Of a stretch of DNA of 64,000 nucleotides, positions 2,840 to 46,931 are shown piece after piece. Origin of the DNA: Sphagnum compactum (taxonomy: Eukaryota); assembly GCA_965153455.1 (NCBI GenBank), contig OZ234494.1:8928001-8992000 (forward strand), given 5' to 3'. The notes beneath the pieces were generated by a model. The model had not been told where the DNA came from and made no database searches. It worked only from the letters and a program-made list of their open reading frames with translations. The translations under genes were made by a program, and so were the position numbers. Numbering within the stretch: the first letter of the stretch is position 1; each line of letters begins with the position of its first letter.

Positions 2840-3329
2840 TATTGGAAACAACTTGAAAACAAGCAAGAAATGCAACACTCAAGGTTCATGAAATGGAACA
2901 ATTGTATTAACTAAAATAAGATTACAAAGGTTGTATGCTTCAAATGCTACAATCATAAAACTATGGCTTGCAACAACTAACAAAGCTTGAAGGTTCTATG
3001 TGCACTCAACAACCATGAAAGGAAAGAATGAAAGACAATTCAAAACCACTCCATTATATACTATCTTCTAACCCTGAAGTAGCCGCCACTTAACCCTGAC
3101 CTAGCTGCCACCAAACCCTAACCCTAGCCGCCGCCTAACCCTAGCCGCCACCAAACCCTAAACCTAGCCGCCGCCTAACCCTAACCCTAGCCGCCGCCAA
3201 ACCCTAAGTAGTCTCCACTTCTAAACCCTAACCTAACAACTACAAGGATGTGTATACTATTCATCCTTTTGATGAATGTTTAACACATTCATCAACATTG
3301 GGAATTAGAAACGAATAGTATTTCTAACA
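2840..3329 (-). repeat. 5' LTR, family A1 (490 bp, TG...TA)
   Basis: Reverse complement reads TGTTAGAAATAC...TTTCCAATA; contains the TTAGGG/GGCGGC array and TATA box. Confidence 0.97.
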
Positions 3330-6236: not shown

Positions 6237-7689
6237 TGTTAGACATACTATTCGTTTCTAATTCATAATGTTAATGAATGTGTGAAACATTCATCAAAAG
6301 GATGAATAGTATTCACATCCTTATAGTAGTTAGGTTAAGTTAAATAGTGGTGGTTAGGGTTTGTAAGTGGAGGCTACTTAGGGCTTGGTGGCGGCTAGGG
6401 TTCGGGTTTGGTGGTGGCTAGGGTTAGGGTTTGGTGGCAGCTAGGGTTAGGGTTAAGTGGCGGCTACTTTAGGGTTAGGAGATAATATATATTGGAGTGT
6501 TTTTGAGTAGTCTTTCATTCTCTCCTTTCGTGGTTTTGAGTGCACATAGAATCATCAAGCCTTGTTAGTTGTTGCAACCATAGTTTTGTGATTGTAACAT
6601 TTGAAGCCTACAACCTTTCTGATTCTTGTTAATTAATACAATTGTTCCATTTTATGAACCTTGAGTGTTTCATTTATTGCTTGCTTTCAAGTTGTTTCCA
6701 ATAGGTTATGGGCCCACACCAAACAAGAGAAAGGACATTGTGTTACAATAAGTAGTTAAAGGTTTAGCTTGTATGGTATAGAAAGGGAGATCCTTTGAGG
6801 GAAGGTTTTTTAGTTTGCAAGGTTGCAAAGAGAGTGGGAGTCCATTTCTAAGTGAATGAGAGGTGTGGAAGAGATTTCTTCAAAGTGTTGTAAGTTTTTC
6901 AAGTCAGGAAACTTGTTTTTCAAGTTTGAGAAAGTGTGTGAAAGAGAGTTCTTTAATTCGTTGAAAGTTTAAAGTGTGTGGAAAAGAGTTCTTCAATTCG
7001 TTGAAAGTCTAAGGTGTGTGCAATAGAGTTCTTCGATTCATTGAAAGCTTGAGGAGTGTGGAAGAGAGTTCTTCGATTTGTTGAAAGTTTAAGGTCTGTG
7101 AAAGAGAAGTTTTCGAGTTGTTGAAAGTGTCAAGTTTTAAGTGTGTCAAAGAGAGTTCTTCCCATCGTTGTAATCAACAAAAGATTTGCAAGTGTTAGAT
7201 TTTCAAGTTTACGTGAGGTGTCAACAATTTTTTCCAAAGCTTTTGATCTTTTCAGAGTGTTTGTTGTAGCATTTGTGTTCAAAATGTCTTCTTTTCAAAT
7301 GGAATCCTTGAAAGTCATGGAGAAGTTTGATGGTGGCAACTTTCACCTTTGGAAGTTCAAAATGCGCATGATGCTTTCTAAACATGGGCTTTGGAAATTC
7401 GTTGATGGGAGTGCCACTTTGCCAAGTGAAGAAGTTACAAGGGCCGATTACAACGAGAAAGAGATGAAGGCTTTTGCATTGCTTTGTGAACATTTCACGA
7501 ATGCCCAACTTGGACACATTCAATATTGTGACAATGTGAGAAGTGCCTGGGAGGCTCTTTGCGGTGTGCAGGAAGCTAAGACAATTGGTAACAAGTTGTT
7601 CCTTCGAAGGAGATGACATGCTTCTGCACATTAACACGGTGAAGGCCCTTACGGACCAACTACGTTCCATTGAGGTGAACATTACAGAT
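6237..7689 (+). mobile_element. 3'-truncated copia family A copy (LTR, PBS, UTR, partial gag)
   Basis: LTR 6237-6703, PBS 6704-6717, gag ATG at 7284, 29-bp deletion near 7610; homology stops near 7689. Confidence 0.93.
6921..7130 (+). repeat. 40-bp tandem repeat in the copia 5' UTR
   Basis: TTGAAAG recurs at 6961, 7001, 7041, 7081 and 7121; unit approx. TTGAAAGTTTAAGGTGTGTGGAAGAGAGTTCTTCGATTCG. Confidence 0.9.
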
Positions 7690-7842: not shown

Positions 7843-8351
7843 TGTTAGAAATACTATTCGTTTCTAATTCCCAATGTTGATGAATGTGTGAACATTCATC
7901 AAAAGGATGAATAGTATTCACATCCTTATAGTAGTTACATTAGGTTGAATAGTGGTGGCTAAGGTTTGGAAGTGGAGGTTACTTACGGCTTGGCGGCGGC
8001 TAGGGTTAGGGTTTGGCGGCGGCTAGGGTTAGGGTTTGGTGGCGGTTAGGGTTAGGGTTTGGTGGCGGCTAGGGTTAGGCGGCGGCTAGGTTAGGGTTAA
8101 GTGGCGGCTACTTTAGGGTTAGGAGTTAATATATAATGGAGTGGTTTTGAGTAGTCTTTCATTCTCTCCTTTCATGGTTTTTGAGTGCACATAGAACCTT
8201 CAACCTTTGTTAGTTGTTGCAAGCCATAGTTTTGTGATTGTAGCATTTGAAGCATACAACCTTTGTAATCTTCTTGTTAGTTAATACAATTGTTCCATTT
8301 CATGAACCTTGAAGCTTTCATTTCTTGCTTGTTTTCAAGTTGTTTCCAATA
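7843..8351 (+). repeat. 5' LTR of the A2 element
   Basis: TGTTAGAAAT...TTTCCAATA followed by PBS GGTTATGGGCCCAC. Confidence 0.97.
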
Positions 8352-10651: not shown

Positions 10652-11253
10652 CAACAATTCGAAAACTTCTCTTTCACACACCTTAGACTTTCAACAAATC
10701 GAAGAACTCTTTTACTCACACCTCAAACTTTCAACGAATCGAAGAACTTTCTTCCACACACCTTCTCAAACTTGAAAAACTACCTCAATGGAACGTAGTT
10801 GGTCCGGAAGGGCCTTCACCGTGTTAATGTGCACAAACATGTCGTCTCCTTTTCGCATTTGATGGTGAAGAATCTCCTTCGCAGGAACAACTTGTTTCCA
10901 ATTATCTTAGCTTCATGCACACCGCAAAAAGCTTCTCAAGCACTTGGCAAGGTGGCACTCCCATCAACAAATTTCCAAAGCCCATGTTTAGAAAGCATCA
11001 TGCGCATTTTGAACTTCCAAAGGTGAAAGTTGCCACCATCAAACTTTTCCATGACTTTCAAGGATTCCATTTGAAAAGAAGACATTTTAAACACAAATGC
11101 TACAACAAGCACTCTTTCAAAAGATTGAAAGCTTTGGAAGAAATTGTTGACACCTCACATAAATTTGAAAATCTAACACTTGCAAATCTTTTATTGCACA
11201 AGCTTGAAATTGCAACAATGGGAAGAACTTTCTTTGACACACTTGAAGCTTGA
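10652..11253 (-). mobile_element. Deleted family A fragments (5' UTR pieces and gag N-terminus)
   Basis: gag ATG at 11085 on the minus strand; internal deletion near 10940; UTR 40-bp repeats at 10652-10782. Confidence 0.85.
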
Positions 11254-12968
11254 TAGACCAATTTCGTTCTCCACCAACGCCTTATATTGTTTGAATTTTT
11301 CAAACACTTCTCCTTTAGCCTTCAAAAGATAGACATGAGTTTTCCTTGAAAAATCAACAATGAAAGTGAGAAAGTATCGCGCTCCACCATGCAATGTAGT
11401 CCTCATTGGCCCGCACACATCAGTGTAGACAATCTCTAAAAGTTGTGAAGCCCTCGTTGCTCCATCCTTGGGAAATGATGTTTTTTTTATGTTGGCCTTG
11501 GATGCATCCTTGACAAATGTGATGCAACGGCACTTCTGGCATCCAACTCCTTAAGGCTTGCCATGTTGAGATGGTCAAGTCTTTTATGCCAAAGCATCGC
11601 ATCTTCATCCAAAGAATTGGCAATGTGTGCCATGTCTTTCGCACCTTCACATGAAGAAGGTACAAGTTGCTGTCCCTTCGTGCTTCCGCCACAACAACTG
11701 CTCGAGCATCGTTGACCTTACAACAATGCTTGTGAAACTCCACTTTGAAGCCTTCGAAAATGAGTTTACTCACAGAAATGAGACTATTTTTCATTTTTGG
11801 AACATGAAGAACTTGGGTGATGGTTGCGTGTGACAACTCGCCTCCTACTTGCATTGTGGCTTTGATGTTCTCTTTGCGAATGGCCTCCAAAACGGTGTCA
11901 TCGCCCATGAACACCCTCCTTGGGGAAATGTGCTCGTACATGGTAAACCATTCTTGTTCGAAGATCATGTGTTGTGTTGCACCGGAATCAACAATCCAAT
12001 CATACGTGCTATGATCATTGGCACGCAATGCAGCAACAAACATTTTTTCGTGATCTTCACTTGACAACTTCTTCACCTGGCAAGGTGGCATTCCCATCAA
12101 TAATTCCAAAGCCCATGTTTAGAAAGCATCATGCGCATTTTGAACTTCCAAAGGTGAAAGTTGCCACCATCAAACTTCTCCATGACTTTCAAGGATTTCA
12201 TTTGAAAAGAAGACATTTTGAACACAAATGCTACAACAAACACTCTCTAAAAAGATCGAAAGCTTTGGAAAAAATTGTTGACACCTCACGTAAACTTGAA
12301 AATCTAACACTTGCAAATCTTTTGTTGATTACAACAATGGGAAGAACTCTCTTTGACACACTTAAAACTTGACACTTTCAACAATTCGAAAACTTCTCTC
12401 TCACACACCTTAAACTTTCAACAAATCGAAGAACTCTCTTCCACACTCCTCAAGCTTTCAATGAATCGAAGAACTCTCTTGCACACACCTTAGACTTTCA
12501 ACGAATTGAAAAACTCTCTTTAACAACTTGAAAACTTCTCTTTCACACACCTCAAGCTTTCAACGAATTAAAGAACTTTCTTCCACACACCTTCTCAAAC
12601 TTGAAGAACTCTCTTCCACAAAAATTTCCAAACTTGAAAAAACAAGTTTTTTTTTCCACACTTGAAAAACTTACAATATTTTAAAGAAATCTCTTCCACA
12701 CCTCCCACTCACTTGGAAATAAACTCCCACTCTCTTTGCAACCTTGTAAACTCGAAACTTTCCCTCAAAGGATTCTCCCTTTTAATGCAATACAAGCTGA
12801 ACCCTTGACTACTTCTTGTTCTAACACAATGTCCTTTCTCTTGCTTGGTGTGGACCCATAACCTATTGGAAACAACTTGAAAACATGCAAGAAATGAAAC
12901 TCTCAAGGTTCATGAAATGGAATAATTGTATTAACTAACAAAAATCACAAAGGTTGTATACTTCAAAT
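11254..12968 (-). mobile_element. Degenerate family A copy (partial LTR, PBS, UTR, deleted gag, protease, start of integrase)
   Basis: LTR U5 end 12864-12968 is cut by the family B LTR; mutated PBS; gag ATG at 12216; large gag deletion near 12060; WIVDSGATQHM and CGPMRTTLHGGARYF motifs. Confidence 0.9.
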
Positions 12969-14893
12969 TGTTGAAGATTATGATGTAGATGTTAGAAACG
13001 TAGATACTGGTGTGGTAGATAGTAGAAACAATGTGGTAGATAAGTGTTGCAAGCAATCAAAGACATAGGTAGATTTGAGAGGGCTTGGTGACAGCTAGGG
13101 TTAGGGTTTGGCGGCGGCTAGGATGAGGGCTTGGTGACGGCTAGGGTTAGGGTTTGGTGGCCGCTAGGGTTAGGCAGCGGCTAGGTTAGGGTTAAGTGGC
13201 GGCTACTTTAGGGTTAGTAGATAGTATATAAGGGTTTGGTTTGAGGAGTTTGAGAGTGCATTGAGGCAATTGCATGTAAGAGTGCTCATTAAGTATTAAT
13301 TAGCATTTGGTTGAGCGCATAAGTGGGTAGAGAGGTCGGATTTGAGTGCAAAATGGCATCGTTTGAGGGAGAGAGCGCTAAAGTCATTGACAAATTCAAT
13401 GGGGAGAACTTCAACCTTTGGAAGTTCAAGATGGAGATGGTGTTGGCCTCCATGGACCTTTGGGAGATTCTCGACGGGTCTGAGGAGGCTCCACCATCCA
13501 ATGCGGACCCCAAAGTCATCGAGGAGTACCAACGGCGCGCGAAGAAGGCCGTGTCCACCATTGGCATCAACTTGGTGGATAGTCAACTTCACCACATCAA
13601 GAGGTGCAAGGGACCCGCTGAGGCATGGAAGACACTTTGCAACATCCATGAGACGCGGAGCTTGTCCAACATCCTCTTCATTCGTCGCAAGTTCTTCACG
13701 TGCAAGATGCAAGAGGGAGAGGACCTTCTAGACCACATCAACAAGGTCAAGGCGCTTGCGGATCAAATTGCTTGTTTGGAGGTGCCCGTGAGGGATGAGG
13801 ATGTTGTGATGACCTTGCTTGAGAGCTTGTCACCCTCCTACGAGTACCTAATCACCGCCTTGGAGGCCTTGCCCATGCAAGACCTCACCATGGAGTTTGT
13901 GACCGCACGATTGATGCATGAAGTGTCCAAGAGGAAGGAGAAGGAGCCGCAAGGTGACGATGGTGTCAACGCAAGGAAGAGGAGGGACCACATCTACACG
14001 CAAAGACACGAAGACATGCTACTATTGTGGCAAACCGGGCCACATTGCACGATTTTGCTTCAAGGCCAAAAACAACAACAAGGAGAAGGAGAATGCCAAC
14101 AAAGCTAAGGACGATGATGACTATTCCTTTGCAACAAAGGATGGAGACCATTGCAAGGCCATATGCACGTGGATCATGGACTCGGGAGCCACCAAGCATA
14201 TGACCTCTCATAGAACCGCATTCGACACGTATGAGGTAATTCCAACACGCAACGTGCATACGGGTGATGATAGCATTGTTGAGGCAATTGGAATGGGGTC
14301 CATCCTTGTGGAAGTGATGGTGAAAGGGCGAACCAAAAAGATTAGAATCAAGGACGTGCTCCATGTGCCAAAATTGCATGCCAACTTGCTTTCGGTGAGC
14401 AAAATCTTGTCAAGTGGGTGCAAAGTGCAATTCAACATGACTGAGTGCATTGTGAGGGCATTTGATGGAAAGGTGATTGCAATAGCGCTACGCGAAGGCA
14501 ACTTGTATCAAGTGACCTTCACTAAGGTGTGTGAGGTGCATGTGGCCAACGTGGCCCAAACTTCAACAATTGATGGTGCATTGGAGCTTTGGCATCGCCG
14601 CCTCGATCATTTGAACGTCAAAGGTGTGCATGCGCTCCAAAACATGGTGAGTGGTATGAACCTTGGAAACATGCCTTGCCCTACATCTTCATTTGTTTGT
14701 GAAGGGTGCATTGAGGGAAAACAACATCGCAAACCATTTCCAAGCGATGGAGGGATGCGTGCCACCAAGCCCTTGGAGATTGTGCATTCGGACGTATGTG
14801 GCCCCATGAGGACCACATCCTTGGGTGGTGCAAGGTACTTTGTGACGTACATTGACGACTTTTCAAGGAAGGTGTGGGTGTACTTGTTGAAGT
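12969..14893 (+). mobile_element. Copia family B, 5' part, inserted into a family A LTR
   Basis: LTR begins TGTTGAAGATTATG at 12969 and matches the LTR at 33262-32860; R-U5-PBS deleted near 13250; truncated in integrase. Confidence 0.9.
13353..14893 (+). pseudogene. Family B gag-protease-integrase N-terminus
   Basis: MASFEGESAKVIDKFNGENFNLWKF gag; CYYCGKPGHIARFC knuckle; WIMDSGATKHM protease; VHSDVCGP integrase; frameshift near 13960. Confidence 0.92.
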
Positions 14894-14967
14894 CCCTAAA
14901 CCCTTCCTAAAACCTGTACAAGAAACTTGAAAAACTTCTCTTACACCTCAAACTTCAATGTTGAAAC

Positions 14968-24238: not shown

Positions 24239-24848
24239 TATTGGAAACAACTTGAAAACAAGCAAGAAATGAAAGCTTCAAGGTTCATGAAATGAAACAA
24301 TTGTATTAACTAACAAGAAGATTACAAAGGCTATGTATGTCAAATGCTACAACCACACAACTATGGCTTGTAACAACTAACAACGCTTGAAGGTTCTATG
24401 TGCACTCAAAAACTATGAAAGACTCCTCAGAACCACTCCAATAATTATTATCCCCTAACCCTAAAGTAGCCACCACTTAACCCTAAACTAGTCGTTGCCT
24501 AACCATAGCCACCACTACACCCGAACCGTAGCCGCCACCAAACCCTAAGTAGCCTCCATTTCCAAACCCTAACCACCACTATTCAACCTAATCTAACTAC
24601 TACAGGATGTGAATACTAGTCATCCTTTTGATGAATGTTTAACACATTCATCAACATTGGGAATTAGAAACGAATAATATTTCTAACACTCCCACTTTAT
24701 GAGGTTTCTAATCTGAACATGTTTATCAACTTATGATGTCGTTCTTCGGATAATGCCTTTTTAAGGACATCCGCCACCATGTGTTCCGTTGGACAATATT
24801 CAAATTGAACTTCTCCATTTTCAACTCATTTTCGAACAAAATGATGTT
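24239..24848 (-). mobile_element. Family A 3' LTR, PPT and RNase H C-terminus
   Basis: LTR 24239-24688; PPT (minus strand AAAGTGGGAG) adjacent; reverse complement of the pol C-terminus up to about 24848. Confidence 0.92.
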
Positions 24849-27633: not shown

Positions 27634-28142
27634 TGTTAGAAATACTATTCGTTTCTAATTCCCGATGTTGATGAATGTGTGAAACATTCATCAAAAGGAT
27701 GAATAGTATTCACATCCTTATAGTAGTTAGGTTAGGTTGAATAGTGGTGGCTAGGGTTTGAAGTGGAGGTTACTTACGGCTTGGCGGCGGCTAGGGTTAG
27801 GGTTTGGCGGCGGCTAGGGTTAGGGTTTAGTGGTGGCTAGGGTTAGGGTTTGGTGGCGGCTAGGGTTAGGCGGCAGCTAGGTTAGGGTTAAGTGGCGGCT
27901 ACTTTAGGGTTAGGAGTTAGTATATAATGGAGTGGTTTTGAGTAGTCTTTCATTCTCTCCTTTCATGGTTTTTGAGTGCACATAGAACCTTCAACCTTTG
28001 TTAGTTGTTGCAAGCCATAGTTTTGTGATTGTAGCATTTGAAGCATACAACCTTTGTAATCTTCTTGTTAGTTAATACAATTGTTCCATTTCATGAACCT
28101 TGAAGCTTTCATTTCTTGCTTGTTTTCAAGTTGTTTCCAATA
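27634..28142 (+). repeat. 3' LTR of the A2 element
   Basis: Preceded by PPT AGAGCGGGAG, followed by CAAAG. Confidence 0.97.
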
Positions 28143-28585: not shown

Positions 28586-29075
28586 TGTTAGAAATACTAT
28601 TCGTTTCTAATTCCCAATGTTGATGAATGTGTTAAACATTCATCAAAAGGATGAATAGTATACACATCCTTGTAGTTGTTAGGTTAGGGTTTAGAAGTGG
28701 AGACTACTTAGGGTTTGGCGGCGGCTAGGGTTAGGGTTAGGCGGCGGCTAGGTTTAGGGTTTGGTGGCGGCTAGGGTTAGGCGGCGGCTAGGGTTAGGGT
28801 TTGGTGGCGGCTAGGTCAGGGTTAAGTGGCGGCTACTTCAGGGTTAGGAGATAATATATAATGGAGTGGTTTTGAATTGTCTTTCATTCTTTCCTTTCAT
28901 GGTTGTTGAGTGCACATAGAACCTTCAAGCTTTGTTAGTTGTTGCAAGCCATAGTTTTATGATTGTAGCATTTGAAGCATACAACCTTTGTAATCTTCTT
29001 TTAGTTAATACAATTGTTCCATTTCATGAACCTTGAGTGTTGCATTTCTTGCTTGTTTTCAAGTTGTTTCCAATA
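28586..29075 (+). mobile_element. Solo LTR, family A1 (490 bp)
   Basis: TG...TA ends, TSD AAATG on both sides, no PBS or PPT. Confidence 0.97.
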
Positions 29076-30535: not shown

Positions 30536-31037
30536 TAATGGAAACAACTTGAAAATCAAGCAAGAAATGAAACACTCAAGGTTCATGAAATGAAACAATT
30601 ATATTAACTAATAATAATCAGAAAGGTTGTATGCTTCAAATGCTACAATCACAAAACTATGGCTTGCAACAACTAACAAAGCTTGAAGGTTCTATGTGCA
30701 CTCAAAACCATGAAAGGAGAGAATGAAAGACTCTTCAAAACCACTCCAATATATACTATCTTCTAACCCTAAAGTAACTGCAACTTAACCCTAACCTAGC
30801 CGCCGCCTAACCCTAGCCGCCACCAAACCCTAACCCTAGCCGCCACCAAACCCTAACCCTAGCTGCCACCAAACCCTAACCCTAGCCGTCGCCAAGCCCT
30901 AAGTAGCCTCCACTTCCAAACCCTAACTACCACTATTTAACATAACTTAACTATTATAAGGATGTGAATACTATTCATCCATTTGATGAATCACATTCAT
31001 CAACATTGGGAGTTGGAAACAAATAGTATTTCTAACA
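30536..31037 (-). repeat. 3' LTR of the outer element
   Basis: Family A LTR in reverse, adjacent to the PPT and the pol stop at 31046. Confidence 0.95.
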
Positions 31038-32859: not shown

Positions 32860-33262
32860 TATTGGAAATTACAAAGGTTATATGCTTCAAATGCTACAAT
32901 CATAAAACTATGGCTTGTAATATCTAACAAGGCTTGAAGCTTCTATGTGCACTCAAAAACCATAAAAGAGAGAATGAAAGACTCCTCAAAACCAAACCCT
33001 TATATACTATCTACTAACCCTAAAGTAGCCGCCACTTAACCCTAACCTAGCCGCCGCTTAACCCTAGCCGCCACCAAACCCTAACCCTAGTCGTCACCAA
33101 GCCCTAATCCTAGCCGCCGCCAAACCGTAACCCTAGCTGTCACCAAGCCCTCTCAAATCTACCTATGTCTTTGATTGCTTGCAACACTTATCTACCACAT
33201 TGTTTCTACTATCTACCACACCATTATCTACGTTTCTAACATCTACATCATAATCTTCAACA
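32860..33262 (-). repeat. Family B 3' LTR (chimeric with family A LTR)
   Basis: Minus strand TGTTGAAGATTATG...TTCCAATA; first approx. 120 bp unique, the rest homologous to family A LTRs. Confidence 0.92.
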
Positions 33263-34372
33263 CTCCCACTTTGCAAGTAATCTAAGACTCCCAATCCCAT
33301 GCTTCTTGTAAGGTTTTGATGCCACTCCTTTGCCAATGCCTTTGTCAACACATCCGCCACCATATCTTGAGTTGGGCAATACTTGAGGCCTATTTCTCCA
33401 CTCTCCAACTTCTCTCGAATGAAGTGGTGTTGTATGTCAATGTGCTTTGTGCGAGAGTGGTGGGTAGGGTTCTTTGCAGGTGCAATGCATCCTTGATTGT
33501 CACACATGATGCTTGTTGCTCCATCTTGCACAAGTCCCACATCCACCATCAATTTCCTCAACCATATGGCCTCCTTGATGCATTGACTAGTGGCCATGTA
33601 TTTGCCCTCCGTGGTAGACAAGGCAATAAATTGTAGGTTGTCTCTTGCAATTTCATGAGACGGCTCCCACTCCAATAAAGAACACATACCCCGTGGTGGA
33701 ACGCCGCTCATTTGCATCTCCACCCCAATCGGCATCACAATATCCCCTCAAACTAATATCCTTGCCTCCAAGGCACAATTTCAAGTCCAAAGTGCCCTTC
33801 AAGTACCGCATGATGCGTTTCACCGCCATCCAATGGGAAGGACCAGCTCTTGACATGAGTTGACTCACCATGCTCACCGGGAATGCAAGATCCGGCCGTG
33901 TGCCCACCATGGCATACATCAATGATCCCACCATCGCCTTGTATGGAATGCCTTGCATCTCCTGTTGAATGCCTTGAAACTCCTCCTCCGTGAGCTTCAA
34001 GAGCTTGGAATTCACATCAAGCGGAGTTCCGATGAGCTTGTAATTCACATCAAGCGGAGTTCCGATGGGCTTGCACTCCTCCATGTTGAAGCGCTCGAGC
34101 ACCTCCTCAATGTACTTACTTTGGCTCATGGTTATGGTGCGGTTCGCACGGTCTTTCTCAAACTCCACGCCAAGGCAATAGTGCAACTCTCCAAGATCAC
34201 TCATCTCAAATTCATCTTCAAGCCTTGACTTCAACCATTTCAAAATGCTCACATTGCTTGCTAAGATGATCAAATCACATAGATGATCACTATCAACAAG
34301 TACTCACCCGTTTGCTTGACGTACAAAGAATGGTCCACTTGGCTCCTAGAAAAGCCTTCGTGGGTGAAGAAC
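33163..34372 (-). pseudogene. Family B RT C-terminus and RNase H
   Basis: FEMSDLGELHYCLG, GYCDADWGGD and RTKHIDIQHHF motifs; YVDD destroyed by a small deletion near 34278; 33-bp in-frame duplication at 34001-34066. Confidence 0.93.
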
Positions 34373-34861
34373 TGTTAGAAATACTATTCGTTTCTAATTC
34401 CCAATGTTGATGAATGTGTTAAACATTCATCAAAAGGATGAATAGTATAGACATCCTTGTAGTTGTTAGGTTAGGGTTTAGAAGTGAAGAGTACTTAGGG
34501 TTTGGCGGCGGCTAGGGTTAGGGTTAGGCGGCGGCTAGGTTTAGGGTTTGGTGGCGGCTAGGGTTAGGCGGCGGCTAGGGTTAGGGTTTGGTGGCGGCTA
34601 GGTTAGGGTTAAGTGGCGGCTACTTAGGGTTAGGAGATATTATATAATGGAGTGGTTTTGAGTTGTCTTTCATTCCTTCCTTTCATGGTTGTTGAGTGCA
34701 CATAGAACCTTCAAGCTTTGTTAGTTGTTGCAAGCCATAGTTTTATGATTGTAGCATTTGAAGCATACAACCTTTGTAATCTTCTTTTAGTTAATACAAT
34801 TGTTCCATTTCATGAACCTTGAGTGTTGCATTTCTTACTTGTATTCAAGTTGTTTCCAATA
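34373..34861 (+). repeat. 5' LTR of the intact element
   Basis: TGTTAGAAAT...TTTCCAATA. Confidence 0.99.
34495..34647 (+). promoter_or_regulatory. LTR promoter: TTAGGG/telo-box and GCC-box array followed by TATA box
   Basis: Repeated GGCGGCTAGGGTTAGGGTTT units, then TATATAA at 34641-34647. Confidence 0.7.
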
Positions 34862-34875
34862 GGTTATGGGCCCAC
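34862..34875 (+). promoter_or_regulatory. Primer-binding site (half tRNA-iMet type)
   Basis: GGTTATGGGCCCAC directly after the LTR. Confidence 0.9.
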
Positions 34876-35531
34876 ACCAAGCAAGAGAAAGGACATTGTG
34901 TTAGAACAAGAAGTAGTGAAAGGTTTGAGCTTGTATTGCATAGGAAAAAGGAGAGAATCCTTTTGAGACAAGGTTCTTAGTTTGCAAAGGGAGAGAGAGT
35001 TCATTTCCAAGTGGTGGCATACAAGGAGCTTGCAACTTTTCCAAGTGAGTGGGAGGTGTGGAAGAGACTTCTTCAAAGTGTTGTAAGTTCTTAAGTGTGG
35101 AAGAGTGTTCTTCAAGTCTTTAAGTTTCAAGTTTGAAGTTCAAAAGTGTGAAAGAGAGTTCTTCAAGTTTTTGAGGTTTCCAACATTGAAGTTTGAGGTG
35201 TAAGAGAAGTTTTTCAAGTTTCTTGTAAGGTTTTTAGGAAACTTGTTTCGTTTAAGTTTTTTGAAAGTGTTTGCTTGTACAACATTGAAAGGGAGAATCC
35301 TTTTGAGGGAAGGCTTTTAGTTTGCAAGGTTGCAAAGAGAATAGTCTTACAAGTGAGTGAGAGGTGTGGAAGAGATTTCTTCAAGGTGTTATAAGTTTTT
35401 CAAGTGTGAAAAACTTGTTTTTGAAAGTATCAAGGTTTTCCAAGTGAAAGTGTTTGGAAGATAGTTCTTTTAGTTGTTGAAAACTTCAACTTTCAAGTTT
35501 GAGAGTGTTTGTTGTAGCATTTGTGTTCAAA

Positions 35532-38500
35532 ATGTCTTCTTTTCAAATGGAGTCCTTGAAAGTCATGGAGAAGTTTGATGGTGGCAACTTTCACCTTTGG
35601 AAGTTCAAAATGCGCATGATGCTTTCCAAACATGGGCTTTGGAAATTTGTTGATGGGAGTGCCACCTTGCCAAGTGAAGAAGTTGCAAGGGCCGATTACA
35701 ACGAAAAAGAGACCAAGGCTTTTGCATTGCTTTGCGAACATCTCACGGATGCCCAACTTGCACACATTCAATATTGTGACAATGTGAGAAGTGCGTGGGA
35801 GGCTCTTTGTGGTGTGCATGAAGCTAAGACCATTGGCAACAAGTTGTTCCTTCGAAGGAGATTCTTCACCATCAAAATGCAAGAAGGAGATGACATGCTT
35901 GTGCACATCAACACGGTGAAAGCCCTTGCGGACCAACTACGTTCCATCGAGGTGAACATTACGGATGAAGATGTTTACATGGTACTCCTCATGAGCCTTC
36001 CTCCATCCTTTGATAACTTAGTCACAAGCTTGGAGTCCATGTCCACGAAAGATGTAGACCTTCAATTCGTTGTAGCAAGGTTGCTTCACGAAGTGTCCAA
36101 AAGAAAAGAATGTGAGAATTCCGAGACTACCGCATTAGTGAACAAAACTCACAAGCCAAATGAGAAGCTTTGCTTTTATTGTAAGAAACCCGGACATTTT
36201 GTGAGAAATTGTTTGAAGAAGAAAAATGATGAAAAAGAAAAAGTTAATCAAGCTTGTGAAGATCACGAACAAATGTTTATTGCGGCATTGAGTGCCAATG
36301 ATCATACCACGAATGATTGGATTGTCGATTCGGGTGCAACGCAACACATGACATTCGAACAAGAATGGTTTACCACGTACGAGCGCATTTCCCCAAGGAG
36401 GGTGTTCATGGGCGATGACACCGTTTTGGAGGCCATTGGCAAGGGGAGCATCAAAGCCACATTGCAAGTGGGAGGCCAATTGACACACACAACCATCACC
36501 CAAGTTCTTCATGTTCCAAAAATGAAGAATAATCTCATTTCGGTGAGCAAACTCATTTCGGAAGGTTTCAAAGTGGAGTTTGACAAGGATGGTTGTAAGG
36601 TCAACGACGCTCGAGGAGTTGTTGTGGCGCAAGCACGAAGGGACAAGAACTTGTACCTTCTTAATGTGAAGGTGCGTAAGGACATGGCACACATTGCAAA
36701 TTCTTTGGAGGAAAGTGCGATGCTTTGGCATGAAAGACTTGGCCATCTCAACATGGCAAGCCTTAAGGAATTAGATGCCATGGTGGATGGCATGAATTTG
36801 AAAGAAGTGCCGTTGCATCACATTTGTGAAGGATGCGTCAAAGGCAAACATCAAAGAACATCATTTCCCAAGGACGGAGCAACGAGGGCTTCACAACTTT
36901 TGGAGATTGTGCACACCGATGTGTGCGGGCCAATGAAGACTACATCCCATGGTGGAGCGCGATACTTTCTCACTTTCATTGACGATTTCTCAAGGAAAAC
37001 TCATGTCTATCTTTTGAAGGCCAAAGGAGAAGCGTTTGAAAAGTTCAAACAATACAAGGCCTTGGTGGAGAACGAAATTGGTCACAAAATCAAAGTGCTG
37101 CGTTCCGACAACGGAGGAGAATTTGTGTCTAAAAAATTTGACGCATTTCTTGCGGAATGTGGAATTCAACGACAAACAAGTGCGCCCTATTCCCCACAAC
37201 AAAACGGTGTTGCGGAACGTGCCAATAGAACCATCATGGAATGTGCAAGAAGCATGATTCTTGCACAAGGGTTGGAACTTCAATTTTGGGGCGAAGCGGT
37301 GAACACGGCGGTGTACATCAAAAATCGATGTCCAACCAAGGCTCTTGATTCCAAGACCCCTCAAGAAGCGTGGAGTGGTAGGAAACCCGATGTGTCCCAT
37401 TTGAGAGTTTTTGGTTGTAAGGCCTTTGCACATGTCCCCGATGAGAAGAGGACCAAATTAGAGTCCAAGTCCATGCCTTGTGTGTTTTTAGGATATTACG
37501 AAGGCACCAAAGCGTATCGCTTGATGTGTGTGAAAACCAAGAGAATCATCAAAAGTAGAGATGTTGTGTTCATTGAAAGGTCAAAGGAAATAGGTGGTGT
37601 ACCTCATCTTGAGAAAGAAGAAAATGTAGTTGTGCATGAAGAAGTTGAGCGAGAAGAACCATTGGCCTTTAGTCAAGATAGACCTTTGAGTGAAACAAGA
37701 ATGGAAGGTGTGCAAAGTGAATCCACACCAAGTTCTTCATCTGAAGAGGAATTTGTTGTTTCCAATGACAACCCATCTTGTGAACCTTCACAAGATATTG
37801 CGAGGGAAAGACCTCAAAGGCAACGAAGGGAATGGCCTCGGGATTGGTGGATTGCTACCAAAGAGGTGGAGCGCGCCACCGTTGCATTTTTGGAGGAGCC
37901 CCAAAATATTGAAGAAGCATTGACATGTGAAAATTCCAAGGAGTGGGAGTGTGCGATGCGAGAAGAATATGATTCCCTCATGACAAACAACACATGGACT
38001 TTGGTACCACTTCCCGCCGGTAGGAAACCCGTTTCTTGCAAATGGGTGTTCAAAATCAAACAAGGCGCAAATGGGGAAGTGGAACGCTACAAGGCTAGAT
38101 TAGTAGCAAGAGGTTTTACTCAAACCTACGGAGTGGATTACAACGAAACTTTTGCGCCGGTCGCAAAATTTGCATCTATTCGTTGTATTCTTGCATTGGC
38201 GGCCTTGGAAGACATGGAGATCCATCAAATGGACGTGAAAACCGCATTTCTCAATGGCGAGCTTGAAGAGGAGATTTACATGGAGCAACCTCAAGGGTTC
38301 GTGCACCAAGGAGGTGAACATCTCGTGTGTAAGCTTCAGAAGTCCTTGTATGGTTTGAAACAATCTCCGAGGGCATGGAATCAAAAGTTAGATGCGTTTC
38401 TCAAAAGCATTGAATTTATCAAGAGTGAGGCGGATCCTAGTGTGTACGTTGCACAAGTGGGAGATGTGAAGTTTTTCATTGTGGTCTATGTGGACGACCT

Positions 38501-39446
38501 CATTTTGGTGTGCAACGATCAAAACAAACTTTTACAAATCAAAGAGGAATTGAGTCAAAAGTTTGAAATGAAGGACCTCGGGGAGTTGCATTTCTTTTTG
38601 GGGATGGAGGTGGAAAGGAATCGTGATGAAAGACTCCTACGCATCAACCAAATCAAATACCTCAAGGAAATATTGAAGCGGTTTCGAATGGAAGAATGTA
38701 AGCCCATTGGAGTTCCATTGGATCCCAAGGTGAAGTTACAAAGGAATGCGAATGGAAATGATGAATCAAAGGGATTCCCATATCAACAAGCGGTTGGGTC
38801 TTTGATGTATGCCATGTTGTGCACACGACCCGACTTGGCATACCCAATAAGCGTGTTGAGTCAACACATGGCGAACCCTAACATGGAGCATTGGATGGCC
38901 GTCAAACGAATCTTTCGATATTTGCAAGGTACATTGCAAATGAAATTACAATTCGGTGGAACACCATCCAAGGAAGTTCTTGGATATTGTGATGCGGATT
39001 GGGGTGGTGATCTTGAAGATAGGAGGTCCACCACAGGGTTTGTTTTCATGATTGGAGGTGGAGCGATTTCTTGGAGTAGCAAACGACAACCCACAATAGC
39101 ATTGTCCACCACGGAGGCGGAATACATGGCGAACACGCAAGCCACAAAAGAAGCCGTATGGATAACAAAATTGATGATGGATTTGGGATACATGGAGGAG
39201 AAGAAAATGATGGTGATTCGATGCGACAATCAAGGTGCGATATCATTGACCAAGAATCCCACTCACCATGCACGAACAAAACACATTGATGTACAACATC
39301 ATTTTGTTCGAGAACGAGTTGAAAATGGAGAAGTTGGATTTGAATATTGTCCAACGGAACACATGGTGGCGGATGTCCTTACTAAGGCATTATCTAAAGA
39401 ACGACATCATAAGTTGATAAACATGTTCGGATTAGAAACTTCATAG
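35532..39446 (+). CDS. Copia gag-pol polyprotein, 1304 aa (gag, zinc knuckle, PR, INT, RT, RNase H)
   Basis: Uninterrupted ORF from ATG 35532 with CX2CX4HX4C, DSGA, LWHERLGH..C..C, integrase D-D-E, YVDD at 38487 and GYCDADW; INT before RT is copia order. Confidence 0.98.
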   Translation: MSSFQMESLKVMEKFDGGNFHLWKFKMRMMLSKHGLWKFVDGSATLPSEEVARADYNEKETKAFALLCEHLTDAQLAHIQYCDNVRSAWEALCGVHEAKTIGNKLFLRRRFFTIKMQEGDDMLVHINTVKALADQLRSIEVNITDEDVYMVLLMSLPPSFDNLVTSLESMSTKDVDLQFVVARLLHEVSKRKECENSETTALVNKTHKPNEKLCFYCKKPGHFVRNCLKKKNDEKEKVNQACEDHEQMFIAALSANDHTTNDWIVDSGATQHMTFEQEWFTTYERISPRRVFMGDDTVLEAIGKGSIKATLQVGGQLTHTTITQVLHVPKMKNNLISVSKLISEGFKVEFDKDGCKVNDARGVVVAQARRDKNLYLLNVKVRKDMAHIANSLEESAMLWHERLGHLNMASLKELDAMVDGMNLKEVPLHHICEGCVKGKHQRTSFPKDGATRASQLLEIVHTDVCGPMKTTSHGGARYFLTFIDDFSRKTHVYLLKAKGEAFEKFKQYKALVENEIGHKIKVLRSDNGGEFVSKKFDAFLAECGIQRQTSAPYSPQQNGVAERANRTIMECARSMILAQGLELQFWGEAVNTAVYIKNRCPTKALDSKTPQEAWSGRKPDVSHLRVFGCKAFAHVPDEKRTKLESKSMPCVFLGYYEGTKAYRLMCVKTKRIIKSRDVVFIERSKEIGGVPHLEKEENVVVHEEVEREEPLAFSQDRPLSETRMEGVQSESTPSSSSEEEFVVSNDNPSCEPSQDIARERPQRQRREWPRDWWIATKEVERATVAFLEEPQNIEEALTCENSKEWECAMREEYDSLMTNNTWTLVPLPAGRKPVSCKWVFKIKQGANGEVERYKARLVARGFTQTYGVDYNETFAPVAKFASIRCILALAALEDMEIHQMDVKTAFLNGELEEEIYMEQPQGFVHQGGEHLVCKLQKSLYGLKQSPRAWNQKLDAFLKSIEFIKSEADPSVYVAQVGDVKFFIVVYVDDLILVCNDQNKLLQIKEELSQKFEMKDLGELHFFLGMEVERNRDERLLRINQIKYLKEILKRFRMEECKPIGVPLDPKVKLQRNANGNDESKGFPYQQAVGSLMYAMLCTRPDLAYPISVLSQHMANPNMEHWMAVKRIFRYLQGTLQMKLQFGGTPSKEVLGYCDADWGGDLEDRRSTTGFVFMIGGGAISWSSKRQPTIALSTTEAEYMANTQATKEAVWITKLMMDLGYMEEKKMMVIRCDNQGAISLTKNPTHHARTKHIDVQHHFVRERVENGEVGFEYCPTEHMVADVLTKALSKERHHKLINMFGLETS

Positions 39447-39454
39447 AGTGGGAG
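39445..39454 (+). promoter_or_regulatory. Polypurine tract AGAGTGGGAG
   Basis: Overlaps the pol stop codon and abuts the 3' LTR. Confidence 0.88.
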
Positions 39455-39943
39455 TGTTAGAAATACTATTCGTTTCTAATTCCCAATGTTGATGAATGTG
39501 TTAAACATTCATCAAAAGGATGAATAGTATAGACATCCTTGTAGTTGTTAGGTTAGGGTTTAGAAGTGAAGAGTACTTAGGGTTTGGCGGCGGCTAGGGT
39601 TAGGGTTAGGCGGCGGCTAGGTTTAGGGTTTGGTGGCGGCTAGGGTTAGGCGGCGGCTAGGGTTAGGGTTTGGTGGCGGCTAGGTTAGGGTTAAGTGGCG
39701 GCTACTTAGGGTTAGGAGATATTATATAATGGAGTGGTTTTGAGTTGTCTTTCATTCCTTCCTTTCATGGTTGTTGAGTGCACATAGAACCTTCAAGCTT
39801 TGTTAGTTGTTGCAAGCCATAGTTTTATGATTGTAGCATTTGAAGCATACAACCTTTGTAATCTTCTTTTAGTTAATACAATTGTTCCATTTCATGAACC
39901 TTGAGTGTTGCATTTCTTACTTGTATTCAAGTTGTTTCCAATA
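39455..39943 (+). repeat. 3' LTR of the intact element
   Basis: Same sequence as 34373-34861 on visual comparison. Confidence 0.99.
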
Positions 39944-39948
39944 AGAAC

Positions 39949-41043
39949 ATGTCAATGCGTTGGTACCATGCTCTCGGTGATTGTTTGAGCCCGTACAACG
40001 ACTTCTTCAACTTACACACGAGGTGTTGCTTGCCATCTTGCACGAATCCTTGCGGTTGGTCCATGTAGATGTCCTCCTCCAATTCCCCATTCAAGAATGC
40101 AGTCTTCACGTCCATTTGGTGGATCTCCAAGTCCATGGCGGCTCCAATTGCAAGCATGCATCTAATGGTGGTGAACTTGGCCACCGGGGCAAATGTCTCA
40201 TTGAAGTCCACACCCTCAACTTGAGAGTACCCCTTGGCCACCAACCTTGCCTTGTGCCTCACGATGTGGCCCGATGCATCCCTTTTTGTGCGAAACACCC
40301 ACTTGCATCCCACACTCTTGCGATCCTTTGGAAGAGGCACCAACTCCCACGTGCCATTGGCCATGAGTGAGCCATACTCCTCTTGCATGGCCGCCTCCCA
40401 CTTGCTTGCATCCTCCGAACGCAGTGCATCACACAAATTCAATGGATCATCAAGACAAGCAACATTAGCACGTTCCACATCTTGTTGGGGTAGGATGTGG
40501 TTCTTCCACCATTCTCCAAGCGGTCGCCGCTCCCTCAAGGGGTACTTACTCTCCTCCGAGGGCTGCCCCTCTTGTTCACCACTTGTGCTTGCATCTTTAG
40601 ATGGTGTTGAAGGTGTTGATGAACACCGTGGGGTTGGCGGTGCCTCTTGATTGCTTAGATCTTCTTTGGCATCACTTACGCCCTCATCATCATCCACACA
40701 TGGCGATTTGGAAGATGTGTCCACAATCACCACATTAGGGGTCTCATTTCTCCCACTTGGACGCATCTTCAAATCATTGCTGACACTAGTGCTATCCTCC
40801 ATGAACTCAACATCCCTACACTTGATGATCTTTTTGGATTGCACACACATAAGCCTATATGCCTTGGTGCCTTCACAATACCCAAGAAACAAGCATTTTG
40901 TGCCCTTTGCATCAAGCTTACTCCTCTTCTCGTCCGGCACCATGGCATACGCAATGCATCCAAACACACGCATGTGTGAAATGCAAGGCTTTCTCCCACT
41001 CCACGCTTCCTCGAGTGTGATGGACGGCAACGCCCTTGATGGA
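39949..41043 (-). pseudogene. Family B integrase C-terminus and RT N-terminus
   Basis: ORF 39927..41030: EAWSGRKP, RHKARLVAKGY, LYGLKQSPRAWYQRIDMF; continues in frame at 34372 once the intact element and one TSD copy are removed. Confidence 0.95.
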
Positions 41044-41940
41044 CCAAAATAGTGTCATCGCCCATGAACCCCCCTCCTTGGGGGAATGCGCTCGTTCGTC
41101 GTAAAGCATTCTTGTTCGAAGGTCATGTATTGTGTTGCACCGGAATCGACAATCCAATCATACGTGGTATGATCATTGGCAATCAATGCGGCAACAAACA
41201 TTTTCTCGTGATCTTCACAAGCTTGATTAGCTTTTTCTTTTTCATCATTTTTCTTCTTTAAATAATTTCTCACAAAATGTCCAGGTTTCTTACGATAGAA
41301 ACAAAGCTTTTCATTTGACTTGTGAGTTTTGTTCACTAATGCGGTAGTTTCGGAACTTTCACATTCTTTTCTTTTGGACACTTCGTGAAGCAACCTTGCT
41401 ACAATGAATTGAAGGTCTACATCTTTTGTGGGCATGGACTCCAGCTCATGACTAAGTTATCAAAGCATGGAGGAAGGCTCATGAGGAGTACCATGTAAAC
41501 ATCTACATCCGTAATGTTCACTTCAATGGAACGTAGTTGGTCTGCAAGGGCCTTCACCGTGTTAATGTGCACAAGCATGTCATCTCCTTCTTGCATTTTG
41601 ATGGTGAAGAATCTCCTTCGAAGGAACAACTTGTTTCCAATTGTCTTAGTTTCATGCACACCGTAAAGAGCCTCCCAAGCACTTTTCACATTATTACAAT
41701 ATTGAATGTGTGCAAGTTGGGCATCTGTGAGATGTTCACAAAGCAATGCTTTGCCTTCGTCTCTTTTTCGTTGTAATCGGGCCTTGCAACTTCTTCACTT
41801 GGCAAGATGGCACTCCCATCAATAAATTTTCAAAGCCCATGTTTAGAAAGCATTATGCGCATTTTGAACTTCCAAAGGTGAAAGTTGCCACCATCAAACT
41901 TTTCCATGACTTTTAAGGACTCCATTTGAAAAGAAGACAT
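41044..41940 (-). pseudogene. Outer element gag and protease
   Basis: ATG at 41940; several frameshifts; WIVDSGATQYM; joined to family B integrase near 41044. Confidence 0.92.
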
Positions 41941-42534
41941 TTTGAACACAAATGCTACAACAAGCACTCTCCCAAAAGATCGAAAGCTTTGGAAAAAATG
42001 GTTGACACCTAACGTAAACTTGAAAATCTAACATTTGCAAATCTTTTATTGTACAAGCTTGAAATTGCAACAATGGGAAGAACTTTCTTTAACACATTTG
42101 AATGTTGACACTTTCAACAACTCGAAATCTTCTTTTTCACACACCTTAAACTTTCAACAAATCGAAGAACTCTCCTCCACACACCTCAAACTTTCAACGA
42201 ATCGAAGAACTCTCTTCCACACACCTTAAACTTTCAACGACTTGAAGAACTATCTTCCGCACACTTTCTCAAACTTGAAGAACTCTCTTTCACACACTTT
42301 CTCAAACTTGAAAAACAAGTTTTGCACGCTTGAAAAACTTACAACACTTTGAAGAAATCTTCTCTTCCACACCTGCCACTCATTTGGAAATGAACTCACA
42401 CTCTCTTTGCAACCTTGCAAACTAAAAATCTTCCCTCAAAGGATTCTCCCTTTCTATGCCATACAAGCTAAACCTTTGACTACTTCTTGTTCTAACACAG
42501 TGTCCTTTCTCTTGCTTGGTGTGGGCCCATAACC

Positions 42535-42995
42535 TATTGGAAACAACTTGAAATGCAAGCAAGAAATGAAACACTCAAGGTTCATGAAATGGAACGATTG
42601 TATTAAATAACAATAATCACAAAGGTTGTATGCTTCAAATGCTACAATCACAAAACTATGGCTTGCAATAACTAACAAAGCTTGAAGGTTCTATGTGCAC
42701 TCAAAACCATGAAAGGAGAGAATGAAAGACTCCTCAAAACCACTCCAATATATACTATATTCTAACCCTAAAGTAGCCGCCACTTAACCCTAACCTAGCC
42801 GCCGCTTAACCCTAGTCGCCACCAAACCTTAACCGTACCGCCGCCAAGCCCTAAGTAGCCTCCACTTCCAAACCCTAACTACCACTATTTAATTTAACTT
42901 AACTACTATAAGGATGTGAATACTATTCATCCATTTGATGAATGTTTCACACATTCATCAACATTTGGAATTAGAAACGAACAGTATTTGTAACA
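42535..42995 (-). repeat. 5' LTR of the outer element
   Basis: Family A LTR in reverse, adjacent to PBS 42521-42534. Confidence 0.95.
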
Positions 42996-46049: not shown

Positions 46050-46931
46050 TGTTAGAAATACTATTCGTTTCTAATTCCCGATGTTGATGAATGTGTGAAA
46101 CATTCATCAAAAGGATGAATAGTATTCACATCCTTATAGTACTTAGGTTGAGTTAAATAGTGGTGGTTAGGGTTTGGAAGTGGAGACTACTTAGGGCTTG
46201 GCGGCGACTAGGGTTAATGTTTTGTGGCGGCTAGGGTTAGGCAATGGCTAGGGTTAGGGTTAAGTGGCGGCTACTTTAGGGTTAGGAGATAGTATATATT
46301 GGAATGTTTTTTAGTAGTCTTTCATTATTTCCTTTCGTGGTTTTGAGTGAACCTTCAAGCTTTGTTAGTTGTTGCAAGCCATAGTTTTGTGATTGTAGCA
46401 TTTGAAGCATACAACCTTTATGATTTTTGTTACTTCATACAATTGTTCCATTTCATGAACCTTAAGTGTTTCATTTTTGCTTATTTTCAAGTTGGCTTAT
46501 TTTCAAGTTGCTTATATTCAAAACCACGAAAGGAGATAATGAAAGACTCTTCAAAACCACTCCAATATATATTATCTTCTAACCCTAAAGTAGCCGCAAC
46601 TTAACCCTAACCTAGCCGCCGCCTAACCCTAGCCGCCACGAAACCCTAACCCTAGCCGCCACCAAGCCCTAAGTAGTCTCCACTTCCAAACCCTAACCAC
46701 CACTAATTAACTCAACCTAACTACTATAAGGATGTGAATACTATTCATCCATTTGATGAATGTTTCACACATTCATCAACATTGGGAATTAGAAACGAAT
46801 AGTATTTCTAACACTCCCACTCTATGACGTTTCTAATCTAAACATGGTTATCAACTTATGATGTCGTTCTTTGGATAATGCCTTGGTAAGGACATCCGCC
46901 ACCATTTGTTCTGTTGGACAATATTCAAATC
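46050..46931. mobile_element. Inverted pair of family A LTRs plus PPT and pol end
   Basis: Plus-strand LTR 46050-46493; minus-strand LTR part 46519-46813; PPT; reverse complement of ...MFRLETS* up to about 46931. Confidence 0.92.

Follow-up and report, generated by a model that had tools for sequence, protein, structure and literature searches.

The best overall explanation of our data, to which we give a probability of roughly 60%, is that a short tandem array in the LTRs of a Sphagnum compactum Copia family (family A) is part of that family's U3 promoter, was captured by a second and very different family (family B), and likely has an enhancer role. Sequence comparison indicates that B captured the array from A in one event, together with the TATA-box match, the R region and the LTR end, and that the resulting hybrid replaced native B in this genome. 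We analyzed a stretch of 64,000 nucleotides (the window), to which all plain coordinates refer.

A young family-A element and its cluster

The window contains a very young, intact Ty1/copia LTR retrotransposon at 34373–39943. Its 489-bp 5′ LTR (34373–34861, plus strand, TG...TA) is 100% identical to the 3′ LTR (39455–39943, plus strand), which holds an identical array (39577–39716), and the target-site duplication (TSD) AGAAC lies on both sides. The primer binding site (34862–34875, plus strand) is complementary over 14 nt to the 5′ half of tRNA-iMet, at its anticodon-stem end; it corresponds to tRNA positions 26–39 in all six tRNA-Met(CAT) genes of the host genome. A single open gag-pol frame of 1304 amino acids (35532–39446, plus strand) has the Ty1/copia domain order gag-PR-IN-RT-RH, and a polypurine tract is found at 39445–39454 (plus strand). 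The assignment to Ty1/copia follows from this domain order, the two LTRs, the primer binding site, the polypurine tract and the 5-bp TSD. The leader of the element (35039–35508) has internal repeats of its own, which in older copies have expanded to 40-bp tandem arrays; copies of these leader repeats were found at 6934–7128, 10652–10764, 12374–12520 and 42110–42264.

Priming by half-molecules of tRNA-Met is given for Osser, Bryco and Gymco-II in the REXdb description (PMC6317226). Family A has a half-tRNA-Met primer site and a moss host, whose telomere repeat is TTTAGGG; sequencing runs containing this DNA carry the labels moss or plant metagenome, once 5 of 23 rows that shared few words with it had been set aside. 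We call family A a Bryco/RLC5-like Copia by primer type, host and clustering; its closest hits in a protein search were unnamed sequences, with no named Bryco reference among them. Exact 5′ junctions of family A numbered 48 on 16 contigs, at a single locus on 13 contigs and at two or three loci on the other 3, and tight clustering at about one locus per large contig is the RLC5 pattern. In P. patens the RLC5 clusters are occupied by CENH3 (10.1101/2023.05.19.541548), and RLC5/Bryco clusters coincide with low recombination in Sphagnum (PMC9946827). We regard the family-A clusters as putative centromeres.

The young element lies in a nested cluster (2840–46813) with further array-bearing A LTRs on the minus strand (2840–3329, 24239–24688, 30536–31037, 42535–42995, 46518–46813) and on the plus strand (6237–6703, 28586–29075, 46050–46494), and the array density of the window reaches 14 LTRs within 44 kb. 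An older A element of a diverged pol lineage has its 5′ LTR at 7843–8351 (plus strand) and its 3′ LTR at 27634–28142; the two LTRs are 98.2% identical, both carry the array, and the TSD is CAAAG. About 15 kb of nested insertions split this element. Its third-position identity in RNase H was 0.66, versus an LTR identity of 0.92–0.96, so that its LTRs closely resemble those of young copies. Among the A pol lineages third-position identity was 0.64–0.69, yet their LTRs were 0.85–0.97 identical in all segments, so entire A LTRs, too, have passed from one lineage to another.

Structure and variation of the array

A preliminary description of this DNA had reported an array of telomere-like and telo-box units alternating with GCC boxes, and such an array exists. 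The region 34495–34647 holds six tandem units (34495–34634, plus strand) that start at 34507, 34530, 34553, 34570, 34593 and 34615, with spacings of 23, 23, 17, 23 and 22 bp and unit lengths of 17–23 bp. In each unit one or two TAGGGTT-like cores come after a GGCGGCT, which reads AGCCGCC on the complementary strand. The region ends at a match to the TATA box, TATATAA (34641–34647, plus strand), which presumably functions as one, and because of this match the array is probably situated in U3. An extra telo-box match precedes the array at 34471–34479 (plus strand).

The LTR at 34373–34861 has four copies of AAACCCTA and six of AGCCGCC within 170 bp upstream of the TATA match, all as consensus matches at which binding is putative. 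We take AAACCCTA to be the telo-box consensus and AGCCGCC to be the GCC-box consensus. The claim that the units contain telo-boxes stood for the 23-bp units, to which, with the upstream flank, the exact AAACCCTA is restricted (mean of 3.1 per A LTR and 1.9 per B LTR in 160 complete LTRs). It did not stand for the two units adjoining the TATA match, which are the most invariant and read TAACCCTA instead.

In the window GGCGGCTAG occurred 39 times versus 0.06 expected and TTAGGG 91 times versus 25.0 expected (0/100 shuffles reached either count); this excess comes from copies of one element and so does not speak of independent origins. The array was present in 14 of 14 window LTR copies that retain the central U3, two of which belong to family B and the rest of which do not. 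Unit number varies among copies, as first described (about four to seven units): we counted 4–8 units in the window (degenerate count) and 2–9, with a mode of 6–7, across 160 complete LTRs taken from the window and from other host-genome stretches.

We compared the two LTRs of the same element in 18 of 22 TSD-matched pairs, having dropped three pairs that spanned different contigs and one with a miscalled end. Seven of the 18 pairs differed by whole units (17, 23, 41 or 46 bp). Slippage or unequal exchange adds and removes units, in part after insertion; variation in unit number therefore need not be tuning.

The exact composite motif had 24 matches, about 18 in clusters and about 6 outside, and one of the four outside loci that were read was an LTR. 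This rarity outside clusters rules out the composite as a common host promoter module. A different, AT-rich repeat with a single GCC-plus-telo-box unit also occurs outside the clusters (L204:1500 and L213:1500).

A second family carries the same promoter block

The young A element is inserted in a family-B element. The interrupted sequence is the RT-RNase H end of B, in broken frames (33263–34367, minus strand; resuming at 39949–41054), and the 3′ LTR of this B element is composite. Its 5′ U3 (33151–33262, minus strand) is B's own, with no significant match to the A U3 and 92–95% identity to native B LTRs at the metagenome loci listed. The adjoining part (32860–33150, minus strand) runs from the array through TATA and R to the LTR end but lacks the greater part of A's U5, and the junction falls between 33151 and 33150. 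A second recombinant B LTR (12969–13250, plus strand; junction 13080/13081) has lost R, U5 and the primer binding site and is joined to the B leader and gag; behind it lies a B gag-to-integrase fragment (13323–14910).

The two families are far apart. Identity between B and A was 51–61% in the polyprotein and about 57–63% in pol DNA, and four-fold degenerate sites were 31–43% identical, where saturation would give 25%. The last array units were 89% identical between A and B and the stretch from TATA to R 87%; the 5′ U3 and the U5 were not alignable. In trees of the 49 of 63 rows whose RNase H portion measured 330 bases or more, the A–B branch length was 0.43 in RNase H versus 0.06 in the block, and in the block tree B formed one clade (support 100/99) except for one chimera. 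We considered whether the block could be shared by ancestry and not by transfer, and this is ruled out by four-fold sites near saturation together with the existence of native B LTRs.

The B breakpoint was sharp: it coincided with the 5′ edge of the array, which was kept whole, and the homology there was a single base. The B LTR thus has segments of discordant ancestry, a sharp breakpoint and two identified parents, as does an inter-element LTR recombinant. The array was found in 30 of 30 fetched B LTRs (from 40 listed of 88 candidates), so the proposal that a retrotransposon is spreading the array holds, and extends to a second family. An unbroken frame was found in none of the six B loci examined. 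Exact recombinant B junctions numbered 49 on 19 contigs of the host genome, and 40 of them were no more than 100 kb from one of the listed A junctions, the area so defined amounting to 1.3% of the genome; of the remainder, 8 were on contigs without a listed A junction and 1 was far away.

On contig C10 (L041 and L042, 3.66–3.71 Mb) a B element that lacks a TSD and has a chimeric 3′ LTR, part B and part A, is present as an inverted duplicate pair. This chimera is a product of A–B LTR recombination through the shared block after insertion.

Direction and route of the transfer

A scan of metagenomes covered at least 76 loci, from which records very near the host genome may be left out. Among the matches listed, A-type LTRs carried TTAGGG in 25 of 25 cases, the exact telo-box in 24 and the exact GCC match in 21 (16 loci). 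In the seven hits to the B 5′ U3 among the matches listed, a native promoter lay downstream in six (three of these six readable for fewer than 20 bases), the seventh was a partial hit, and the array followed in none. The B pol of locus L125 was 81–92% identical to host-genome B. The more distant half-tRNA elements L103 and L104 had no array and had a short motif in common with native B.

Within the host genome, the native B LTR gave 21 hits, 20 of them on contig C20, and by shared flanks (20 of 21 examined) these reduce to about two insertions. The direction from A to B is indicated by the array-free B among the metagenome matches listed and by the presence of about two native relics versus 49 recombinant junctions. 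In addition, 31 of the 48 closest database proteins were nearer to B than to A, which makes B the widespread type and A the local one. The replacement of native B by the hybrid may be a founder effect, and there are hints that the repeat helps elements to spread.

The two relics on the small contig C20 (L177–L196, 0.2–3.2 Mb) have been copied along with their flanks, about 9 and about 11 times, a sign of heavy segmental duplication there. The LTRs of A (34854–34861, 39936–39943), recombinant B (32860–32867), L103 and L104 end in TA and not CA, which is the ending kept by the native-B relic on C20; LTR finders that require TG...CA would miss the TA-ended elements.

The simplest route for the move of the block, we infer, is a single template switch during reverse transcription. 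One particle would have held one A RNA and one B RNA, and minus-strand DNA primed on A would have copied U5, R, TATA and the array. A single non-homologous switch to the 5′ U3 of B would then have occurred at the 5′ edge of the array, a second transfer would have used the 14-nt primer site common to A and B, and a 75-bp deletion in U5 would have arisen with or after the switch. LTR mosaics made by such switching are described within families (PMC6894440). The alternative route is a nested insertion plus a deletion.

Telomeric, quadruplex and targeting interpretations

The array could be thought of as captured telomeric DNA that acts through a four-stranded structure, a reading we hold to be most improbable. 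It is favored by G-runs on one strand, by a three-tier motif (loops no longer than 15 nt) that 113 of 160 LTRs contain, by G4Hunter scores of at least 1.2 in 159 of 160 LTRs, and by the commonness of quadruplex motifs in plant LTRs (PMC5838962). However, the host telomere is built on a 7-mer (5125 five-unit matches to TTTAGGG versus 85 four-unit matches to TTAGGG) and the array on a 6-mer. Two tandem TTTAGGG units were found in 0 of 160 LTRs, and the longest perfect 7-mer tract was 12 nt, so that the array is no interstitial tract of the host telomere and a telomeric origin is not supported.

The preliminary description had also predicted an interstitial telomere signal in FISH. The best match of the array to a 21-nt plant telomere probe was 15/21, and a signal with plant probes is therefore unlikely; a vertebrate-type 18-mer matches at 17/18 (160 LTRs). 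The telomere link and, for plant probes, the FISH prediction accordingly failed. A sharp 0.2-kb interstitial band with MseI has been reported in P. patens (PMC10856949). The array-holding MseI fragment measured 170–200 bp in 51 of 145 copies, which is a lead only for that band, given the other species and the poor match to the plant probe. Two tracts elsewhere in the assembly deserve mention: a long perfect TTTAGGG tract in mid-contig C1 (from 17329294; the largest contig, with three element clusters), suggestive of a chromosome fusion or an assembly join, and a TTAGGG tract, unlike the host repeat, at the start of contig C140 (1–222), possibly from another organism in the assembly.

Quadruplex proneness fared no better. 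A canonical motif (four G3 runs, loops of 1–7 nt) occurred in 2 of 160 LTRs and was absent from 34373–34861, whose G4Hunter score of 1.32 was below all 300 shuffles. Long-loop forms were common, and the loops in this LTR were 14, 14 and 3 nt. Long-loop motifs were mostly unfolded in the data presented in PMC5838962, although the loops there (27–49 nt) were longer than here.

Another reading holds that telomere-repeat binding proteins on the arrays tether or silence the elements (PRC2-type), help to define the centromeric cluster, or guide insertions. About three exact telo-boxes per A LTR, with 14 LTRs in 44 kb, would offer such proteins many sites, and the CENH3 on P. patens RLC5 clusters (10.1101/2023.05.19.541548) fits as well. 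Arabidopsis TRBs bring in PRC2, JMJ14 and PEAT, and genes with telo-boxes rise in moss trb mutants (PMC12616469). Against this, native B without the array was nested with family-A DNA in all five metagenome loci, among the matches listed, that hold native B, and the more distant half-tRNA elements lack the array as well; clustering thus does not need the array. The suggestion that the array directs self-targeting is contradicted by the same five loci. For the Arabidopsis Copia element Tal1, targeting has been mapped to the C-terminus of integrase (PMC11735389), and with the array-free B this leads us to propose that integrase, and not the array, probably does the cluster targeting. We consider a chromatin platform of this kind quite improbable.

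Function of the array

The array is probably a proximal enhancer bound by host factors, a role that fits its position, its retention and its capture. Such an enhancer would raise or time transcription in the cells that transmit insertions. Tentative candidates for these factors, at well below even odds, are the telomere-repeat Myb proteins TRB/TRFL for TAGGGTT and AP2/ERF proteins for the GCC match. In moss, telo-boxes peak just upstream of gene starts (PMC12616469), and the rise of telo-box genes in trb mutants means that TRB binding could repress as well as activate. A stronger version, in which a selected platform of telomere-repeat Myb and ERF sites serves transcription in centromeric chromatin or germ-line cells and has swept across unrelated pol lineages, strikes us as decidedly doubtful. 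If it were true, telomere-binding proteins would be present at the centromeres of mosses and would influence which retrotransposon their DNA is made of.

The array may instead be a neutral passenger, a minisatellite born by slippage in a G/T-rich U3 with incidental motifs, B having gained through A's TATA, R or LTR end, or by drift. We think this rather unlikely, and the evidence that bears on it is as follows. Motif positions had been expected to be more conserved than the rest of U3, and the outcome was mixed. In host-genome A LTRs their transversion rates were not lower than background (p = 0.98; shared-to-rare Fisher p = 1.0), as a passenger would have it. In the metagenome LTRs listed, motif transversions were below background (p = 0.015) but not below the 5′ U3 alone (p = 0.31), the spacers were also low, and alignment to repeats biases this test towards conservation. 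An apparent special conservation of the GCC box (0.6% vs about 3%) was rejected; it came from setting different kinds of substitution, at G/C and at A/T sites, against each other and was gone when the host-genome test was repeated with transversions only.

Three further observations favor a passenger. Units change after insertion in the 7 of 18 LTR pairs described above, A lineages share the whole LTR and not just the array, and deamination has eroded the GCC positions. This erosion, by CG/CHG transitions, reached 5–6% in the host genome and up to 35% in the metagenome copies listed, and points to methylated, silent copies. Moreover, the captured block also contains TATA, R and the LTR end, so that a benefit to B, if any, is not assignable to the array.

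A passenger is harder to reconcile with the B breakpoint, which lies exactly at the 5′ edge of the array and retains the array entire. None of the 160 complete LTRs had fewer than two units, the TAGGGTT cores of the last two units were nearly invariant in all three LTR sets, and the array lies directly upstream of the TATA match. These four points argue against the passenger.

Transcription across the element was seen in 30 poly(A) read pairs from a related sample, in the sense direction if the library was made with a standard stranded protocol; these 30 pairs showed no pile-up of read ends at a transcription start. In P. patens the stress signal at an RLC5 LTR was due to read-through, and young sporophytes show induction of tRLC5 (PMC7466625).

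These results matter because moss centromeres are thought to be built by Copia clusters. B under its native promoter and B with the captured block form a natural matched pair, which makes the value of the block directly testable. It also follows that an "RLC5 cluster" can consist of two very different families trading promoters. Even if the array does nothing, the B LTR is a clean case of LTR capture between unusually distant parents.

Comparison with known systems

Repeats in the U3 of plant LTRs include the BII boxes of Tnt1 and the 13-bp repeats of Tto1. The array of family A resembles in form the U3 repeats of Sireviruses, also Copia elements, in which a variable array of short units lies upstream of a conserved TATA; the Sirevirus and plant U3 repeats described there are tandem or palindromic, whereas the units here are direct repeats with telo-box and GCC-box matches (PMC4728375). 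Variable U3 arrays before the TATA are thus already known, as are prolific centromeric recombinants that leave parental LTR remnants (PMC4728375; PMC4079200; PMC11302176).

The clusters themselves are like the RLC5/Bryco clusters of P. patens, Sphagnum and Polytrichastrum in Copia domain order, half-tRNA-iMet primer, moss host and nested arrangement at about one cluster per chromosome-scale contig (10.1101/2023.05.19.541548; PMC9946827; PMC7466625; 10.64898/2026.09.17.752431). In the accessible portions of these sources RLC5 is one family whose LTR is not described, whereas here two families with 51–61% protein identity have a common captured promoter block. The string "telomer" is absent from the accessible text of PMC7466625 and PMC9946827. 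Neither such a composite array nor a pair of families within moss clusters was described in the literature searched, which was largely open-access and for the most part screened by title and opening of the abstract; the original account of RLC5 may describe the LTR.

Cereba and Quinta, like A and B, are two centromeric families with common TATA, R and LTR termini, but Quinta is a non-autonomous derivative of Cereba, whereas B is an independent lineage with a full pol of its own that acquired the block (PMC11302176). The grass recombinants CR5-Zm, CR5-Sb and CRM1 are closer in history: centromeric subfamilies exchanged segments, sometimes part of an LTR, and the recombinant proliferated while remnants of the parental LTR persisted. 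A template switch or nested illegitimate recombination has been proposed for them (PMC4079200). Those elements are Ty3/gypsy chromoviruses whose parents share about 74–89% DNA identity, in contrast to the Ty1/copia parents here, with their far lower identity in pol, and only here does the exchanged piece start exactly at a tandem motif array (PMC4079200). What is new in the present case is a second family, B, that carries the array, TATA and R of family A behind its own 5′ U3.
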